The position numbers and the translations under genes are program-made. From positions 16,127 through 37,428 of the forward strand of contig MGLW01000005.1 in NCBI GenBank assembly GCA_001794905.1: 21,302 nucleotides of DNA, in the 5' to 3' direction. Shown one piece after another: positions 15,475 through 21,302 of the stretch. This DNA comes from Chlamydiae bacterium RIFCSPHIGHO2_12_FULL_49_11 (GTDB taxonomy: Bacteria; Chlamydiota; Chlamydiia; Chlamydiales; 2-12-FULL-49-11). Numbering within the stretch: position 1 is the first letter of the stretch; every line of letters starts with the position of its first letter. The notes under the pieces were generated by a model. It saw only the letters and a list, made by a program, of their open reading frames with translations. It was not told where the DNA came from and searched no databases.

Positions 15475-15499
15475 GAAAACCCGCTTTTAAACTTCCTTA

Positions 15500-15528
15500 A
15501 TTATAACATTTTCTTTAAGTTTTAGCAA
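15500..15528 (-). promoter_or_regulatory. Promoter for the 566-aa ORF
   Basis: Minus strand TTGCTA-N17-TATAAT ending 25 nt before the ATG. Confidence 0.6.
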
Positions 15529-15606
15529 TAATTAAAATCATGAAAAGATTCTTAAAATATAATTCATTTGTGATTAGCTAGTTATGTAATATTTATGAAA
15601 TAATTC

Positions 15607-15635
15607 TTCCAAATTAATTAAAATTAGTTTATAAT
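15607..15635 (+). promoter_or_regulatory. Candidate promoter for the 15674-21302 operon
   Basis: TTCCAA-N17-TATAAT in a very AT-rich intergenic region, so a chance match is possible. Confidence 0.45.
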
Positions 15636-15673
15636 TAATCTTAGAGGAAATCCAACCCAAAGGTAGAACCAAT

Positions 15674-18600
15674 ATGTCAGTAATCCTGGACCCTAATAAT
15701 GTCCAAAGTTATCGGGATGCCATTACTGCTCTTGTCAGCGGCCCTTCTCCCAACTCTATGCTGGGGCTGGCCAACCAATTGCTCGATCAGACGCAACTGC
15801 CTCTCCTTACATCGATTGTGGGTGATTTTCTCCCCGAACTCGAAAATTCCGGCATATTCACTCCAAATGTCTCTTGGATCCAACAAGTTCAAAATGTGAA
15901 CAATATCGGATTCTTGGGAGGTGAAGCCCTTATTAACGCCATGATTTCCGCTGTCCGTTTCGGCGCCTTGCAGATCTTCGATATTACCTATCCACCTCTT
16001 TCCCTTACCGGGGACGGAAGTTATTCCAATTCAGACCCGAACTACCCCACCTTTGGATCAAGACCCGCCCAATCAAAGGTCCTTCCGGGATATGCTGCCG
16101 GTTTAACCGTCCCGACCGGTTGGAATGCAGGCAACGTTCCGGATGATTTTGAACCAGGCAATGACAATAGGGCAACTGATTGGCAAAAAATGAGCTACCT
16201 CGATGCGCTGAATAACGCTTATATCGATACATTTAAAAATGTCGTTTCCACTGCATATGCAACAAATAACATGAGTCTCATCACTGCATTTTTAAATACG
16301 CCTCATAGCGATATTTCTGTCCGGGATGCTTCAGGGGCATCATTTCTCTATACATTTAAAGGTTCACCCGCCTTGCTGGCACAATTTGACGGATGGAAGA
16401 GCTACCAGTCCAAAATCGGCCTTGCCTCTATGGCACTCGGAATTATGCAGCCTGCAGCCATTGGCTCTTTTGGTGTGACTTATGATACCTTGGGAATGTT
16501 TGGCGGAGCTGCGGCAGTATGGCGCCGGGCCGTATATACGTATCTCTATGGAGACGCAAATACGGTCGGTGCTATATATGATTCGAATATTAGCGCAGCT
16601 ACATTGTACGCCAATGTCTTATCCGCATTTACTACAAACCAGACAAGCGGAGAAGCTCTTGCATGGCAAAAAGCAGCCCAGGCACAACAGCTCTATTCCA
16701 TATTTTACCAGGTGAGAAACGATTTTGGGAGACGTATCAAAACAAATACCGAACTATTCGGTGAGCTATTGCAGTTTTTCAATTTAATGAACGATCCCAC
16801 TTTCCTTGATCTCACCACTTTCGGACAAGCGGGAGGTTTTCAGCACAAAGGCTTTTTCGGAATTCACTCGGAAGATAACGGTCCCATGACAGGGGAAAAC
16901 CTTCCCACTGCCACCGGTAGCAATAACGCACAGGCAAGGGGTCCGGGCTGGTGGACCAGCTCTCCTTATGATTCTGCGTTTAATTTGATCAATGAATTGA
17001 TGCGAAATCTTGGATCTACGGATTCGGCCGTGATGGGAGCCACCCTTCCTCCGAACTTGAATAACTTGATTCTTGGAGAATATTTTGATAACAGCGGTAA
17101 TTTGGCTCAAGGAACTCTTCCGTTCGAGACCCAAAAATCGCTCATTTTGGACTGGATTCGGAATAATTATATCAACCAATGGGTAAATGACGAGACTATT
17201 ACGAGAGCGCAACTACTCACAAATATCACAAATTCTACCAGCATGGGCGCGATATGGAGTTACTTTGATAGCGCCACCGTGACCGATATCCAGAACCGGC
17301 TTATTCAGTCCCGTTCCTCCCTAATTCTCGCAGTTGCCGATCAAATCAGGAATGTAAAAAATCTTTCAACGCTAACCACGCAGACTATCGTTATCACAAT
17401 AAACTCTGTGCCGGGACAAGGATACAACAAACTTGTGATTCCAAAAGGAATGAATCTTGCCAATATTCTATTCGAACTGGGTCAAGCGGTCTACAATCCC
17501 GACTATTTTGCAACTACAAATACTTCGAACCATATTTACTTCATCAATGCGAACTCGAGCCTCACAAGTTCGCAGCTCTCAGATCCCACCGTGGCGATTA
17601 CAGCTGATCAACTCAGTAGCAATCGTACCCTTCTGCTTTATGGACAAGTGGCAAACCTAGGAAACGCCATCAAACAGGTCTTGCTTCAAATGACACCCGC
17701 CGGTGCCGATGTCGGTTATGACGTCATTTTCGCTAAATCGGTCCAGCAGCAACAGATATTTTTCTATCTGGAATCGATTCGACAAAACATGGCCGGCATG
17801 CCCTCGTATCTCGGGATGAGCTCTGCTCCTAACACAAACACCACCGGCCGATATTCGTTTTCGGACTTTTTGGGATTGATCTCGGTTCTTTCCAGTCCAT
17901 TATTTTACGATGCCAGTATCATCAGCTCGGGAGGTTCTACCCGATATTTCCAGGGATATCTTGTGGGCGGTACTTTCAACTCTCAGAATACCGAGAGCGG
18001 AAGCATTACTTCTAACAATTATCCTAATATTCCACGATGGTCCGGTGAGGTCCCTTTCAATTGGTGGTACAATAATGAATCTTTTAACAGATTAACCGCA
18101 GCCCGCACTGACCAGACACAAGGAGCCACGACAGCGTTCGGATATTGGGCCGAACAGCTGTTTTTAAATTATTATCAAGGTTTAAATACCACTCTACGAC
18201 AACCTAGCACTGCAGCAAATCAAGAGCTCCGAAATCAGATTTTATCGGCCAAGAACGGATTTGATTATGAAATCCACAATACCCAAATAAATCAGTCCCT
18301 CAGCAATGACCCGATGACCATCATCACCAAAATCTTGTTCAACAGTACGTCGGTATCGAACTTGAAACTCGGGATGCAGGCGGCCATGACGAATAAAGTC
18401 AACGCCCTCAGCGCAAACACCGTACCGCAACTTTCCGACATCGTCCTGGAGCGGGGAGAAGTCCTCGCAGTAGCCCAGCTTGTTCAAAGCGGTATCGGCG
18501 AGCCTTCGGGAACATATGCCACTATCGACGCTTACATCGCTGCAATTAGGCTCAGTTTGAGCAGTGATGCCAATAGAACGGCTTTTGATACCGCGATCAG

Positions 18601-19348
18601 CCAGCAGAAAAAATTTGACCTTCTTCAAAGGTTTATGCAAGATGCCAAAAGCGGGAATTTTTCTATTGCCGAAGCCATGGCCTTTGTTAAATTCCTGAAC
18701 GATCCCGAATTTATATATTGGCAGAATTCCAATTGGGCATGGCAAGGTTCTAACATTGTGTATAAAAACGCCGCTGGAACCTGGATGCGACAAGGCACCG
18801 GTTCATCAAATTCTTTAGGATATCTCGTAGCTACTGCACTGGCAGGCACTAGTCCAATTGTCATTGCAGGCGTAACATATAACAGCGGTTACCTTAAAAT
18901 GTTCCAGACTTACGCTACAGGTCTGAAAACAAACGACCCCTTCTTCCAGGCCAATCCTGCAACGGCAGACCAGCTTGCCTCCACTTTGGGCTCGTTAATT
19001 ACCGACCTGCAGGCCGCTCCCTCTCCATATGGGGGAAATTTGGCAAATACGCCGTATAGCATTTATATTTGGGCGGACCCTACCAAGTTTGGAAAGACAC
19101 TGGAACCGGGCAGCGGCGCAAATGATACTCCTACAACACCTGACGCTCCCACTCAGCAGTATCTCAGTACCGTCACGAGTGATTTGAACCAGCTCCAAAC
19201 GATCGTGAGCGGTGCGAGCCAGGTGCTCAACGCCCAGCAGCAACAGGAAGGTCAGCTCTTCAATACGAAGATGGCAGTGTTGAAGGAATTTATCCAGTTA
19301 ATATTACAAATGATGCAAGTATTTCAACAAAATCTAGTAAACAGATAA
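15674..19348 (+). CDS. Hypothetical 1224-aa N/S/T/G/A/Q-rich protein with degenerate internal repeats and C-terminal helical module; candidate type III-secreted structural protein
   Basis: Uninterrupted ORF, no Sec signal peptide, no Cys seen, low charge; C-terminal amphipathic helices shared with downstream genes. Confidence 0.9.
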   Translation: MSVILDPNNVQSYRDAITALVSGPSPNSMLGLANQLLDQTQLPLLTSIVGDFLPELENSGIFTPNVSWIQQVQNVNNIGFLGGEALINAMISAVRFGALQIFDITYPPLSLTGDGSYSNSDPNYPTFGSRPAQSKVLPGYAAGLTVPTGWNAGNVPDDFEPGNDNRATDWQKMSYLDALNNAYIDTFKNVVSTAYATNNMSLITAFLNTPHSDISVRDASGASFLYTFKGSPALLAQFDGWKSYQSKIGLASMALGIMQPAAIGSFGVTYDTLGMFGGAAAVWRRAVYTYLYGDANTVGAIYDSNISAATLYANVLSAFTTNQTSGEALAWQKAAQAQQLYSIFYQVRNDFGRRIKTNTELFGELLQFFNLMNDPTFLDLTTFGQAGGFQHKGFFGIHSEDNGPMTGENLPTATGSNNAQARGPGWWTSSPYDSAFNLINELMRNLGSTDSAVMGATLPPNLNNLILGEYFDNSGNLAQGTLPFETQKSLILDWIRNNYINQWVNDETITRAQLLTNITNSTSMGAIWSYFDSATVTDIQNRLIQSRSSLILAVADQIRNVKNLSTLTTQTIVITINSVPGQGYNKLVIPKGMNLANILFELGQAVYNPDYFATTNTSNHIYFINANSSLTSSQLSDPTVAITADQLSSNRTLLLYGQVANLGNAIKQVLLQMTPAGADVGYDVIFAKSVQQQQIFFYLESIRQNMAGMPSYLGMSSAPNTNTTGRYSFSDFLGLISVLSSPLFYDASIISSGGSTRYFQGYLVGGTFNSQNTESGSITSNNYPNIPRWSGEVPFNWWYNNESFNRLTAARTDQTQGATTAFGYWAEQLFLNYYQGLNTTLRQPSTAANQELRNQILSAKNGFDYEIHNTQINQSLSNDPMTIITKILFNSTSVSNLKLGMQAAMTNKVNALSANTVPQLSDIVLERGEVLAVAQLVQSGIGEPSGTYATIDAYIAAIRLSLSSDANRTAFDTAISQQKKFDLLQRFMQDAKSGNFSIAEAMAFVKFLNDPEFIYWQNSNWAWQGSNIVYKNAAGTWMRQGTGSSNSLGYLVATALAGTSPIVIAGVTYNSGYLKMFQTYATGLKTNDPFFQANPATADQLASTLGSLITDLQAAPSPYGGNLANTPYSIYIWADPTKFGKTLEPGSGANDTPTTPDAPTQQYLSTVTSDLNQLQTIVSGASQVLNAQQQQEGQLFNTKMAVLKEFIQLILQMMQVFQQNLVNR

Positions 19349-19358
19349 GGAGAAACAA

Positions 19359-19583
19359 ATGTTACCGGGAATCAACTCGAAAGATGAAGCAAAGCTTCCT
19401 TCCAATTTGAGCGCGTTTAATAATCCGCGGCTCACAGCTGCCCTTGCCACCTTGGCTTCCTTATTGTATGCAGCGCGGGAATACCAAAATATCGGGGATC
19501 GTATCAATTCCATTTCCAAAGAGGATATGGAAGTATTCATAGAGATATTTGCCGCTCCCCAAGAGGAACAAGGGGGAGAATAA
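19359..19583 (+). CDS. Small hypothetical helical protein (74 aa)
   Basis: SD TAAGGAG overlapping the upstream stop; fills the gap between co-oriented genes (10 and 2 nt spacers). Confidence 0.8.
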   Translation: MLPGINSKDEAKLPSNLSAFNNPRLTAALATLASLLYAAREYQNIGDRINSISKEDMEVFIEIFAAPQEEQGGE

Positions 19584-19585
19584 CC

Positions 19586-20368
19586 ATGGTGGTAGAAAAT
19601 GATCTAGCCATTCATGCAGCTCAAACGGCACAAAACGATTTTGCCAAAGCGCTGCTTCTTGCCGCTTATGCCACGTATGTTGCCATGTACGTTACCGCAC
19701 AGCAGCATAGCAGAGGCCGCGTCGTCATCGATGAAATCGCGAAGTGGCAACAGACGCTCCAAGAGCTGGACGGAACAACCACCTCGGGCGCAAATCGCTA
19801 TTTTGCCAATTCCATCCTGTACTGGAAAGAGCAAACGTTCAATGTCAACAACGGGCTTCCCCTCCCTTACAGACAGGCCCGGCTTAACCATCTGTTCGCA
19901 GAATATCAGCATTGGTTCAATGAATATACGAGAACTTTTCTTGCATTCAGTTGGGGAGAACCGGACAAAACGATAGGACGACAGATAAATAATGAAGCGG
20001 TTTCACGCTTGAATACTCTTACCGGTCAATTGAGGGGCGATAGTGCCGAATTTGGCGTCGCTGATGCACTAAATCCGGATGTGGTCCTAAGCGAGGATGC
20101 ATTCTATTTTTTTCGTCTAAGACCAAACCCCACCACAGCTGCCAGGACAGCCCAGGTCAACACGTTCACCCAGTATTGCACGAGCGTATTGCAAATGTTT
20201 AACCAAGCCCAAAGTAACGCCTCCTTTACGCACGGGACGGGGATGTCTACGGCATCCTCGATGCTTTCGAGTGAATTGAAACGGATGGGGTCGTTGGAAA
20301 GTTTAACAAGAGCTCTCATCTCCACACAAAATCCGAGGTTTTTAAGCGGATTTGGAGCGAGAGGATAA
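19586..20368 (+). CDS. Hypothetical 260-aa helical protein, candidate T3SS filament/tip-like subunit
   Basis: SD GGGGGAG; N-terminal apolar helix; C-terminal module aligning ungapped to the 1224-aa protein. Confidence 0.85.
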   Translation: MVVENDLAIHAAQTAQNDFAKALLLAAYATYVAMYVTAQQHSRGRVVIDEIAKWQQTLQELDGTTTSGANRYFANSILYWKEQTFNVNNGLPLPYRQARLNHLFAEYQHWFNEYTRTFLAFSWGEPDKTIGRQINNEAVSRLNTLTGQLRGDSAEFGVADALNPDVVLSEDAFYFFRLRPNPTTAARTAQVNTFTQYCTSVLQMFNQAQSNASFTHGTGMSTASSMLSSELKRMGSLESLTRALISTQNPRFLSGFGARG

Positions 20369-20383
20369 TAAAAAGGATAAAAC

Positions 20384-20854
20384 ATGTCACAACCCACAGT
20401 ACAAGAAGCAAAGGCTTTTGAGCTCGCTTCCCTGGTAACCCAGCTCAAGAACGGAACTATCGATCCCCTCCTTCGCATGGGTGTTCTGGTCTCGCTGTTT
20501 GCCAAGTTGCAGCAACTGGCAGCCGAAGCCCACAATAAAGCATCCGATTCATTGCATGGCTGGCTTGAAACGATCCAAGGGTGGTATAGCGCCGTGATCG
20601 GCCCGGGGACAAAACCATGGGCCAACAATGCCAGCGTCGGCGATAGCACCCAGAAAAACCTCGTTGCACAGCAGGTCAGCAACCTTTTAGGGGTTGTAAA
20701 CAGCAACCAGGGTTCAGAGCAAACGGCGGCACAAGCGGTAGCAAAAACGATAGACACTGCCCAGCAGTCGATATCCGACCAGACAAGCAGCTACACGCAA
20801 ACGGCTCAAATAGTCACCAGAAAATTCGACCCGAGCACGGTTGGATTAGGCTAA
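20384..20854 (+). CDS. Hypothetical 156-aa Q/S/T/A-rich helical protein (EspA/SseB- or DUF720-like architecture)
   Basis: SD AAGGA; N-terminal apolar helix, short linker, long Q/S/T-rich C-terminal helix. Family assignment is inference only. Confidence 0.85.
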   Translation: MSQPTVQEAKAFELASLVTQLKNGTIDPLLRMGVLVSLFAKLQQLAAEAHNKASDSLHGWLETIQGWYSAVIGPGTKPWANNASVGDSTQKNLVAQQVSNLLGVVNSNQGSEQTAAQAVAKTIDTAQQSISDQTSSYTQTAQIVTRKFDPSTVGLG

Positions 20855-20879
20855 AACAACAAGGTAAAAAAGGAAATAT

Positions 20880-21302
20880 ATGAGACATACCAGTCTTCAC
20901 GGAACTTCCGAAGTATACAAAATCGGCACGGTAGAGACCCGCTTACATGGGGCATCGATTTCCCTCCTTGCTGCCCTGATTATGGCCATTATGGCCAGCA
21001 ATGAAAATCAGATGAGCCAGTCGGAGGCGCAGTCGCTCCTATTCGAAAGCATCACGATGAATGATTCCAATGGAGTTGCCCAAACCGTGACTGTGCTTGA
21101 TTTGCTGCAAGAGGCGGCCAGCAGCAACGTGACGGCGACAACCCAAAGCCTCCAAAAGTATATCAATTCCTTAGACCAAATGCACCTTTTTGAAGCATTG
21201 AAGTGGCTCACTTTCGGCTTGACGCTGGTTGCCGGTATGGCTTCTGTGATATTCACCATGGGCGCGGGAGCTGCCGTGGCTACTATGCTTATCACCGGCC
21301 TT
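20880..21302 (+). CDS. Candidate type III translocator (SctE/CopB/SseC-like), 5' part
   Basis: Not in the ORF track (open to window end). SD AAGGA, ATG 20880; MRHTSLHG...SISLLAALIMAIMASNENQ...LQKYINSLDQMHLFEALKWLTFGLTLVAGMASVIFTMGAGAAVATMLITGL: a polar helix followed by a Gly/Ala-rich hydrophobic hairpin. Confidence 0.75.
   Translation, partial: MRHTSLHGTSEVYKIGTVETRLHGASISLLAALIMAIMASNENQMSQSEAQSLLFESITMNDSNGVAQTVTVLDLLQEAASSNVTATTQSLQKYINSLDQMHLFEALKWLTFGLTLVAGMASVIFTMGAGAAVATMLITGL

Follow-up and report, generated by a model that had tools for sequence, protein, structure and literature searches.

The composition of the needle tip and the divergence of the translocon across chlamydial lineages are poorly understood, and the locus described here raises the question of which type III secretion system (T3SS) component is encoded by an operon whose genes have hardly any recognizable relatives. 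The stretch of DNA that was analyzed (referred to as the window; 21,302 nt, positions 16,127 to 37,428 of contig MGLW01000005.1 of Chlamydiae bacterium RIFCSPHIGHO2_12_FULL_49_11) ends in five co-oriented open reading frames (ORFs), ORF1 to ORF5 (O1 to O5). An earlier note, made from the sequence alone, took them for an orphan five-gene operon encoding an undescribed T3SS filament or tip together with its own translocator. Our analysis points to a different answer: the locus is probably a T3SS translocon operon, namely, a lineage-specific, inverted, and strongly diverged variant of a conserved chlamydial module that we designate F7-F5-F11. Relative to the module of its relatives, the first gene is ~fivefold enlarged and three middle genes are replaced.

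Extent of the operon and the adjacent injectisome cluster

The host genome (G000; 1.26 Mb, 48% GC, 82%-complete) includes the window as one contig of scaffold C5 (54451 nt), with scaffold gaps represented by N runs at the window borders. Positions on this scaffold may also be given as L001 coordinates (L001 coordinate + 14873 = window coordinate). The five co-oriented ORFs of the earlier note, with their sizes, were confirmed at exact coordinates (Table 1). They are separated by 10, 2, 15, and 25 nt, and Shine-Dalgarno sequences precede O2, O3, O4, and O5 (AAGGAG, GGGGGAG, AAAGGA, and AAGGAA, respectively), with a weaker one before O1 (AAAGGTAG). The claimed richness in Q, N, S, and T also held, these residues making up 23-35% of O1 to O5 (charged residues, 12-23%; Cys, 0-1). 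The claim that Sec signals are lacking stood in part: a Kyte-Doolittle hydrophobicity scan, the sole method applied to this point, revealed no transmembrane (TM)-like segment in O1 to O4, while segment 21-40 of O5 is readable either way. None of O1 to O5 had a significant family in Pfam, NCBIfam, or PHROGs, and the PHROGs search returned no phage or contractile-injection family, the kind of match that the note had named as pointing to an unrelated origin. Neither paralogy among O1 to O7 nor internal repeats in O1 were detected by blastp or hhalign, at odds with the several paralogous small subunits that had been proposed.

The unit is longer than the window. A 43-N scaffold gap inside O5 is bridged collinearly, with zero differences, by an independent Logan contig. 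Two further frames, O6 and O7, follow O5, and the gap between them measures 119 nt in an independent Logan contig versus 9 N in the scaffold. Because 283 + 119 + 600 = 1002 nt, O6 and O7 fall into one frame of 333 codons plus stop (O6/7); the 60 visible letters of the 119 contain no in-frame stop, the middle 59 being outside view. The operon is composed of six genes (O1-O2-O3-O4-O5-O6/7), followed by a terminator, and not of five as the earlier note had it, with O6/7 lying beyond the window. The AT-rich, divergent intergenic region upstream of O1 is presumed to be the promoter region; the sigma-70-like plus-strand matches at L001:630-659 and L001:722-751 are weak, and the number of such matches (16 versus 12.1 expected in shuffled sequence) was not above chance. 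The only Rfam match is a tRNA outside the operon. The locus is near-identical (one G>T over 8 kb) in Logan contigs of groundwater and soil metagenome runs from three studies, one of which is possibly the source of the genome, and no RNA runs were listed among the holders of the locus.

After the terminator, the scaffold carries, in order, the minus-strand gene m152, a CesT-family chaperone, CdsD (with FHA, YscD, and CdsD domains), DUF5398, an HrpB1-like TPR protein, an 82-aa needle-like protein, the T3SS ATPase (CdsN), YscO (CdsO), a FliN-type CdsQ, and a Pkn5-like kinase. This is a core chlamydial injectisome cluster, and the assignment of the operon to a T3SS is borne out by its abutting the CesT/CdsD/CdsN/CdsO/CdsQ/Pkn5 genes.

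Kinship with the F7-F5-F11 module of other chlamydiae

Of the 41 genomes searched, G000 among them, 40 have CdsD; its identity in the relatives is ≤48%, which marks the target as a deep lineage. The region upstream of CdsD was taken from 16 relatives, and its ORFs were clustered into families (denoted by F and a number). In 10 of the 16, an F5-type gene lies between clpX and the CesT-CdsD pair, always on the strand opposite CdsD. The genes tig-clpP-clpX stand directly beside the F5 operon in 8 of these 10 relatives; the other two contigs end before. The 10 relatives share the order F0 (~146 aa), F10 (~133 aa), F0, F7 (247-390 aa, typically ~260 aa), a variable middle of one to three small genes, F5 (501-728 aa, with three to five hydrophobic segments), F11 or F15 (~320-450 aa; F11 is typically ~335 aa), and a ~500-aa protein. 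What fills the middle depends on the genus: g3 and g5 have F9 (~142 aa) there, g2 has two F12 paralogues, and genome G022 has a 264-aa gene. Since O1c (the C-terminal module of O1), O5, and O6/7 are homologous to F7, F5, and F11, respectively, the target operon is the same module placed on the other strand; m152 and a 566-aa gene at its two ends are still on the minus strand.

The F7-type family is an unnamed chlamydial family defined in this analysis. Its hidden Markov model (HMM), searched against the 12274 stop-to-stop ORFs of the target genome, had the last ~140 aa of O1 as its sole match (19.4 bits, E 5.8e-4). The hhalign comparison of O1c with F7 reached 90.7%, and the alignments have a PFF motif and a terminal helix in common. 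O1 is thus laid out as an N-terminal part of ~880 aa and a C-terminal F7-type module of ~346 aa (window positions 18308-19345), a boundary that also emerges from the large protein searches. A phmmer search of O1 residues 25-1224 against 1.84e9 representatives yielded two matches, one of them a 98%-identical fragment and the other P0002 (388 aa), which is 31% identical to O1 residues 879-1223 (E 2e-18). The P0002 match thus confines the conserved module to the final ~346 aa and leaves the first ~880 aa of O1 unique; no relatives of the latter were detected in the large protein searches. In a search of 5.8e9 proteins, O1 matched none of the 7996 best candidates, and it had no match in 40 related genomes. 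The genomic context of P0002 was not recovered in 22 genomes of the family, in genome contigs, or in metagenome contigs, and an alignment scan for it returned only the window's own contig.

The F5 HMM likewise had a sole match among the 12274 ORFs, covering the hydrophobic hairpin of O5 (20.7 bits, E 1e-4), and hhalign joined O5 to F5 at 95.8% (E 6.8e-9) through a common hydrophobic hairpin with a T-GAGAA motif and a common C-terminal part. Kyte-Doolittle segments of O5 lie at residues 21-40, 107-142, 179-205, and 276-301, of which the last three align with those of F5. The F5 family in turn reaches the SseC model PF04888 (cut-off, 30.2 bits): the member at L035:6486-8030 scored 41 bits and a second one (L039) 26.7 bits (E 5e-6), and the other 8 of the 10 F5 members had no match. 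On these grounds, we hold with fair confidence that O5 is a predicted SctE-type pore-forming translocator and a remote member of F5, in keeping with the earlier proposal that the operon encodes its own translocator.

For the sixth gene, F11, F15, and two singletons proved mutually homologous (hhalign 97-98%; 61-66% for the most distant). Genome-wide, their merged profile had just two matches: its positions 214-335 matched the O7 frame (22.2 bits, E 6e-5), and its positions 70-111 matched the O6 frame (10.9 bits). These matches are collinear, which supports a single gene. Its 333 codons compare with 329-365 aa in the F11 proteins of the relatives. Located directly downstream of O5, O6/7 is its conserved partner. 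It has weak Gly/Ala-rich hydrophobic stretches, as read with 59 nt of the gap outside view, and O7 matches the YopD C terminus (PF05844), over the C-terminal 78 positions only, at 18.6 bits (E 1e-3; cut-off, 25). A PDB sequence search with O7 and with two alignment profiles (A1 and A2) returned nothing meaningful. Position, size, the weak hydrophobic stretches, and this one subthreshold YopD match suggest that O6/7 may be the minor translocator (SctB).

The association of these families extends well beyond the 16 relatives. An O1c/F7 profile scored in 34 of 300 genomes, including 18 of the 21 in the window's own family (G000 excluded); the removal of three weak matches in family f35 (866-874-aa ORFs) left 31 true F7-type genomes. 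In 26 of the 31, an F5-type match lies within ~5 kb on the same strand, with F7 upstream in 24 and F5 upstream in 2 (one genus). Of the remaining five, four have no F5 match; in the fifth, the two genes lie at contig ends, each on a different contig. O1 itself lies 1.56 kb upstream of O5. An O5/F5 profile had matches in 62 of 301 genomes and none in the two Chlamydiaceae-like f35 genomes searched. F7-F5-F11 would be a second translocon module, which has no TPR chaperone alongside and is located beside the CdsD cluster in several environmental chlamydial families. Some genomes carry F5-type genes in greater number: three to six paralogues occur in members of family f43 (G176, G196, G164, and G116), and G176 has four clustered in a ~30-kb stretch (C1:532759-561456). 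Matches with one to three in-frame stops were seen in G290, G269, G296, G219, G116, and G164 and may be decaying or split copies.

These observations bear on the possibility that the genes have nothing to do with type III secretion, encoding inclusion-membrane or surface proteins next to an injectisome cluster by coincidence. O5 does lack a direct family match, and hydrophobic hairpins also mark chlamydial Inc proteins. However, F5 is connected to the SseC model, the hydrophobic segments of O5 number three to four in an F5-like layout, in place of a single bilobed one, and F7-F5-F11 is kept beside CesT-CdsD across genera, so that we regard such a coincidence as highly improbable. Two parts of the earlier description need revision in the light of this kinship. 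The term orphan applies only to O2, O3, O4, and the first ~880 aa of O1, as O1c, O5, and O6/7 are related to F7, F5, and F11. Nor is the system an undescribed kind of machine, being a rearrangement of an operon that the family conserves; the expectation that its genes would co-occur in other genomes was borne out by the linkage of F7 and F5.

Candidate roles of the operon products

If the locus is a translocon operon, all of its Q/N/S/T-rich products would be exported through the needle. O5 would be the pore-forming subunit, inserting into the host membrane with its hydrophobic hairpin, and O6/7 would be its smaller, SctB-like partner. O1 may be hydrophilic, secreted, and active together with the translocon where the needle meets the host, docking via its C-terminal helical-hairpin module, and its unique N-terminal part could serve a lineage-specific function, possibly host contact. 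O2, which is acidic (pI 4.5) and the sole operon protein with a chaperone-like composition, might act in the cytosol as a partner or chaperone. O3 and O4, both Q/N/S/T-rich, would be lineage-specific secreted accessories in the genus-variable slot. Composition divides the proteins of the region in a compatible way: O1, O3 to O7, F7, F9, and F11 are secreted-like (Q+N+S+T, 25-42%), and m152, F0, and F10 are cytosolic-like (charged residues, 30-47%).

The three middle genes are the most isolated. O2 has no family in Pfam, NCBIfam, or PHROGs, and its hhalign values were <15% to all 11 families of the relatives. Searches of 5.8e9 proteins with O3 and with O4 returned, in each case, only the protein itself, on seven contigs. 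O3 had no feature hits in the Atlas resource, and its Atlas model had a pLDDT of 0.40. O4 occupies the slot directly upstream of the translocator gene O5; it has no TPR or other Pfam family and no similarity to the F9 proteins of the relatives or to the LcrH-like chaperone of the genome. Comparison of O2, O3, and O4 with the relatives' F9, F10, F12, F0, F14-16, and F20 revealed no relation (hhalign <15% to every family).

Several points weigh against the reading of the locus as a translocon operon. Since O2, O3, O4, and the first ~880 aa of O1 have no relatives, their roles are read from position and composition alone. The F7 family has no assigned function, and the O1 models have a pLDDT of ~61, with fold matches not above the helical background. 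Only 1 of 10 F5 relatives exceeds the PF04888 cut-off. O5 itself had no PF04888 match at E ≤ 10 (the best of the genome, 10.7 bits, is on another contig), and with 435 aa versus 501-728 aa in F5, it is without the 250-350-aa N-terminal region of the relatives. O7 matched the merged F11 profile at only 59% by hhalign, and its PF05844 match is below the gathering score, with none at E ≤ 1 in any of the 10 F11-type relatives. Finally, Pfam scans revealed no class II TPR chaperone encoded within this operon or within those of the relatives; of the second translocator and SycD/LcrH-type chaperone sought downstream in following up the earlier note, the former has a candidate in O6/7, and the latter is absent from the operon.

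The structure predictions pertain to a narrower version of the original proposal, in which O1, O3, and O4 are subunits of a polymerizing needle extension or tip (EspA/SseB-like or LcrV/IpaD-like) with its own translocators. AlphaFold2 models of the C-terminal 200 aa of O1 (10 sequences; pLDDT, 61.0) and of residues 879-1224 (346 aa; 31 sequences; pLDDT, 60.8; pTM, 0.51; last 155 aa, block means of 65-88) are all-helical. In the latter, helix 2-35 of the module pairs with a 65-residue terminal helix (281-345), so that the one part modeled is predicted to be a helical hairpin, as the note had anticipated. Axial T3SS proteins have such a hairpin; in tip and filament proteins (SctA), helices that are distant from each other make up a long antiparallel coiled coil, with inserted domains. 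The hairpin predicted for O1c would fit an axial or tip-like protein without proving one. Other features are compatible with a tip as well: O1 to O4 are placed as lcrG-lcrV or espA are relative to translocators, the sizes of 74-260-156-435-~333 aa parallel lcrG-lcrV-lcrH-yopB-yopD, and O1 shared language-model features in the Atlas with clusters of IpaD/SipD (0.83), LcrV (0.82), EspA (0.81), and also DUF720, all below the reliability bar of 0.9. However, O1 to O4 had no match to LcrV (PF04792), IpaD/SipD (PF06511), or EspA (PF03433) in Pfam at E ≤ 10 or by profile against PDB sequences. Foldseek returned nothing at E ≤ 0.001 for either C-terminal model, and the best VIA-align scores (Z 10.3 and 9.7) were to designed bundles and unrelated hairpins. 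The T3SS chains scored lower (IpaD, Z 8.2; needle, 8.6; rod, 8.8; IpaB coiled coil, 8.5), tied with many unrelated hairpins and below a helical background of ~13. Moreover, O1, O3, and O4 are not paralogous, and the slot between F7 and F5 is filled by unrelated genes across genera, which is unexpected for an essential structural polymer. A complex prediction for O1 residues 879-1224 with O2 gave a score of 0.02 (mark, 0.32) and was uninformative either way. Of the proposed filament or tip plus translocon, the translocator part stood; no match to EspA, SseB, LcrV, IpaD/SipD, flagellin, or DUF720 emerged from the Pfam, PDB sequence, and fold searches, which leaves the filament or tip a matter of hypothesis, and we consider a polymer of O1, O3, and O4 quite improbable.

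The best language-model resemblance of O1 lies elsewhere and raises the alternative that O1 to O4 are host-targeted effectors encoded in a translocator operon, O1 being analogous to DUF582 (PF04518) proteins, which are, like O1, large and Q/N/S/T-rich and are chlamydial T3SS substrates. The top Atlas clusters of O1 are two PF04518 clusters (0.85 and 0.84; 175 and 171 of 256 features), again below the bar. The three f35 matches to the O1c/F7 profile that were set aside above are weak (E 4e-4 to 1e-3), and the two of these ORFs that were scanned are true PF04518 proteins (E ~1e-96). Fast-evolving orphan sequences are, in addition, typical of effectors. However, PF04518 had no match in the target genome at E ≤ 1 and exceeded its cut-off in none of 41 related genomes, hhalign placed F7 against DUF582 at 0.3%, and two-way HMM searches reached at most 11.6 bits, with one paralogue group only. 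The tight linkage of F7 to F5 (26/31) argues for a translocon-coupled role, and we consider effectors to be an unlikely explanation of the four genes. As for a family assignment, membership of O1 or F7 in DUF582 itself found no support in the Pfam, hhalign, reciprocal HMM, and genome scans.

With the translocon reading retained, a bolder extension of it can be formulated. The F7 family might be the missing hydrophilic translocator or tip protein (an SctA analogue) of the non-Chlamydiaceae chlamydiae, with O1 as a giant version that presents its ~880-aa domain at the needle tip for host recognition or adhesion and with O3 and O4 as further tip subunits. Although we judge this rather unlikely, it would, if true, describe an adhesin-tipped injectisome of a kind undescribed for any T3SS. 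More generally, the hydrophilic protein that partners the chlamydial translocon has concrete candidates in the F7-type proteins and O1. The fivefold expansion of O1 and the replacement of the middle genes between O1 and O5 occurred in one groundwater/soil lineage of uncultured environmental chlamydiae, and the locus can be viewed as a natural experiment on how quickly an injectisome evolves at its host-contact end. If these candidates were ordinary effectors, the locus would be a routine operon of fast-evolving secreted proteins.

Neighboring genes and known translocon systems

Upstream of the operon, the window encodes pckA, mreB, a 955-aa protein, an SNF2 helicase, tig, clpP, clpX, a DUF4143 ATPase, and a 566-aa protein (Table 1). 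The ATPase, of the PDC-S01 type, lies between clpX and the operon, a position at which the relatives have clpX directly beside the operon, and is possibly a mobile insertion marking the rearrangement boundary. On the other side of the operon, m152 belongs with the F0 and F10 proteins, which are 130-160 aa long and highly charged, have no Pfam family, and lie between the translocon operon and CesT-CdsD. Most relatives have two F0 copies and one F10 copy, and the target has one copy (m152); these proteins could be chaperones or regulators. Downstream of CdsD, the 82-aa protein (L001:11900-12148) is needle-like in size and sequence, and a 215-aa protein (L001:12167-12814) has very weak YscI (E 0.23) and needle-family (E 2.2) signals; the two genes probably encode the needle and the inner rod of this injectisome.

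Table 1. Positions of the operon genes, neighboring features, and other chaperone loci of the target genome
Feature	Position	Strand	Description
O1	15674-19348	+	1224 aa
O2	19359-19583	+	74 aa
O3	19586-20368	+	260 aa
O4	20384-20854	+	156 aa
O5	20880-21302	+	First 141 of 435 aa, open at window end; whole gene L001:6007-7314
O6 frame	L001:7334-7615	+	First frame after O5
O7 frame	L001:7626-8225	+	9 N after O6, other frame in scaffold
Intrinsic terminator	L001:8251-8274	+	Strong; 9-bp stem with 8 GC pairs, then T run
Upstream intergenic region	15475..15673		AT-rich, divergent; between minus-strand 566-aa gene and O1
566-aa coiled-coil protein	window:13774-15474	-	No family; divergent from O1
AAA_14 + DUF4143 ATPase, 401 aa	window:12358-13563	-	Matches PADLOC candidate defense family PDC-S01, E 3e-102
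tRNA gene	window:8951-9022	+	Rfam 68.5 bits; between SNF2 helicase and trigger factor
955-aa protein	window:2215-5082	-	16 Cys, no family; between mreB and SNF2 helicase
m152, small charged protein	L001:8532-8990	-	hhalign 82% to F0
Second candidate translocator set	G000:C48:6816-9249 (L058:1317-3750)	-	181-aa coiled coil, chaperone, two hydrophobic proteins
Second TPR protein, 140 aa	G000:C20:55418-56300 (L059)		TIGR02552, 43.5 bits; with 162-aa protein, just upstream of dnaA

The target genome holds a second candidate translocator set on contig C48, in which an LcrH/SycD-like TPR chaperone of 149 aa (TIGR02552, 85 bits) is followed by a 309-aa hydrophobic-hairpin protein and a 172-aa single-TM protein; none of its proteins is related to O4, O5, O6, or O7. 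A further TPR locus, on C20, adjoins a protein-kinase-domain gene. In the Chlamydiaceae-like genome G173, two operons were found (chaperone-129 aa-494 aa-440 aa and chaperone-506 aa-492 aa), which we take to correspond to scc2-CT577-copB-copD and scc3-copB2-copD2. The C48 chaperone alone resembles proteins of these operons (E 2e-11), and O5, O6/7, F5, and F11 have no sequence similarity to them, which indicates that the operon studied here is part of a distinct, F5-type translocon lineage that lacks a TPR chaperone in cis. In the target as in the Chlamydiaceae cop operons, a second protein comes after a hydrophobic one of ~450-500 aa, and the target has an LcrH-like chaperone set on C48; in contrast to the cop operons, it has no TPR chaperone in cis and carries an F7-type gene upstream instead.

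The published record, as far as the portions available to us go, places these loci within a broader picture. The T3SS is part of the chlamydial core genome (PMC8242063), two translocator sets are described in Chlamydia pneumoniae (PMC4068993), whose CopB and CopD are treated in two reports (PMC4068993 and PMC4536800), CopB is given as the translocon of Protochlamydia (PMC5451489), and CT584 is the proposed tip protein of the Chlamydiaceae (PMC8779370). No description of an F7-type partner turned up in the accessible parts of the full-text literature, a weak negative for a family that has no searchable name.

Set beside the SseC/YopB/EspD proteins (SctE, PF04888), O5 differs in that it lacks a direct PF04888 match, is short, has no long N-terminal region, and has no TPR chaperone gene upstream, where translocators of this family usually, if not universally, have a class II one directly adjacent; it resembles them in matching the family via F5, in adjoining injectisome genes, and in being followed by a gene for a smaller partner. 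The Yersinia lcrGVH-yopBD and Pseudomonas pcrGVH-popBD operons encode, in order, a small protein, a hydrophilic protein of ~260-330 aa, a ~160-aa protein, and the major and minor translocators. Although O2, O3, and O4 are not homologous to LcrG, LcrV, and LcrH, O4 is not a TPR protein, and a 1224-aa gene stands ahead of them, O2-O3-O4-O5-O6/7 follow a similar order of similar sizes, and the last gene carries the weak match to the YopD C terminus.

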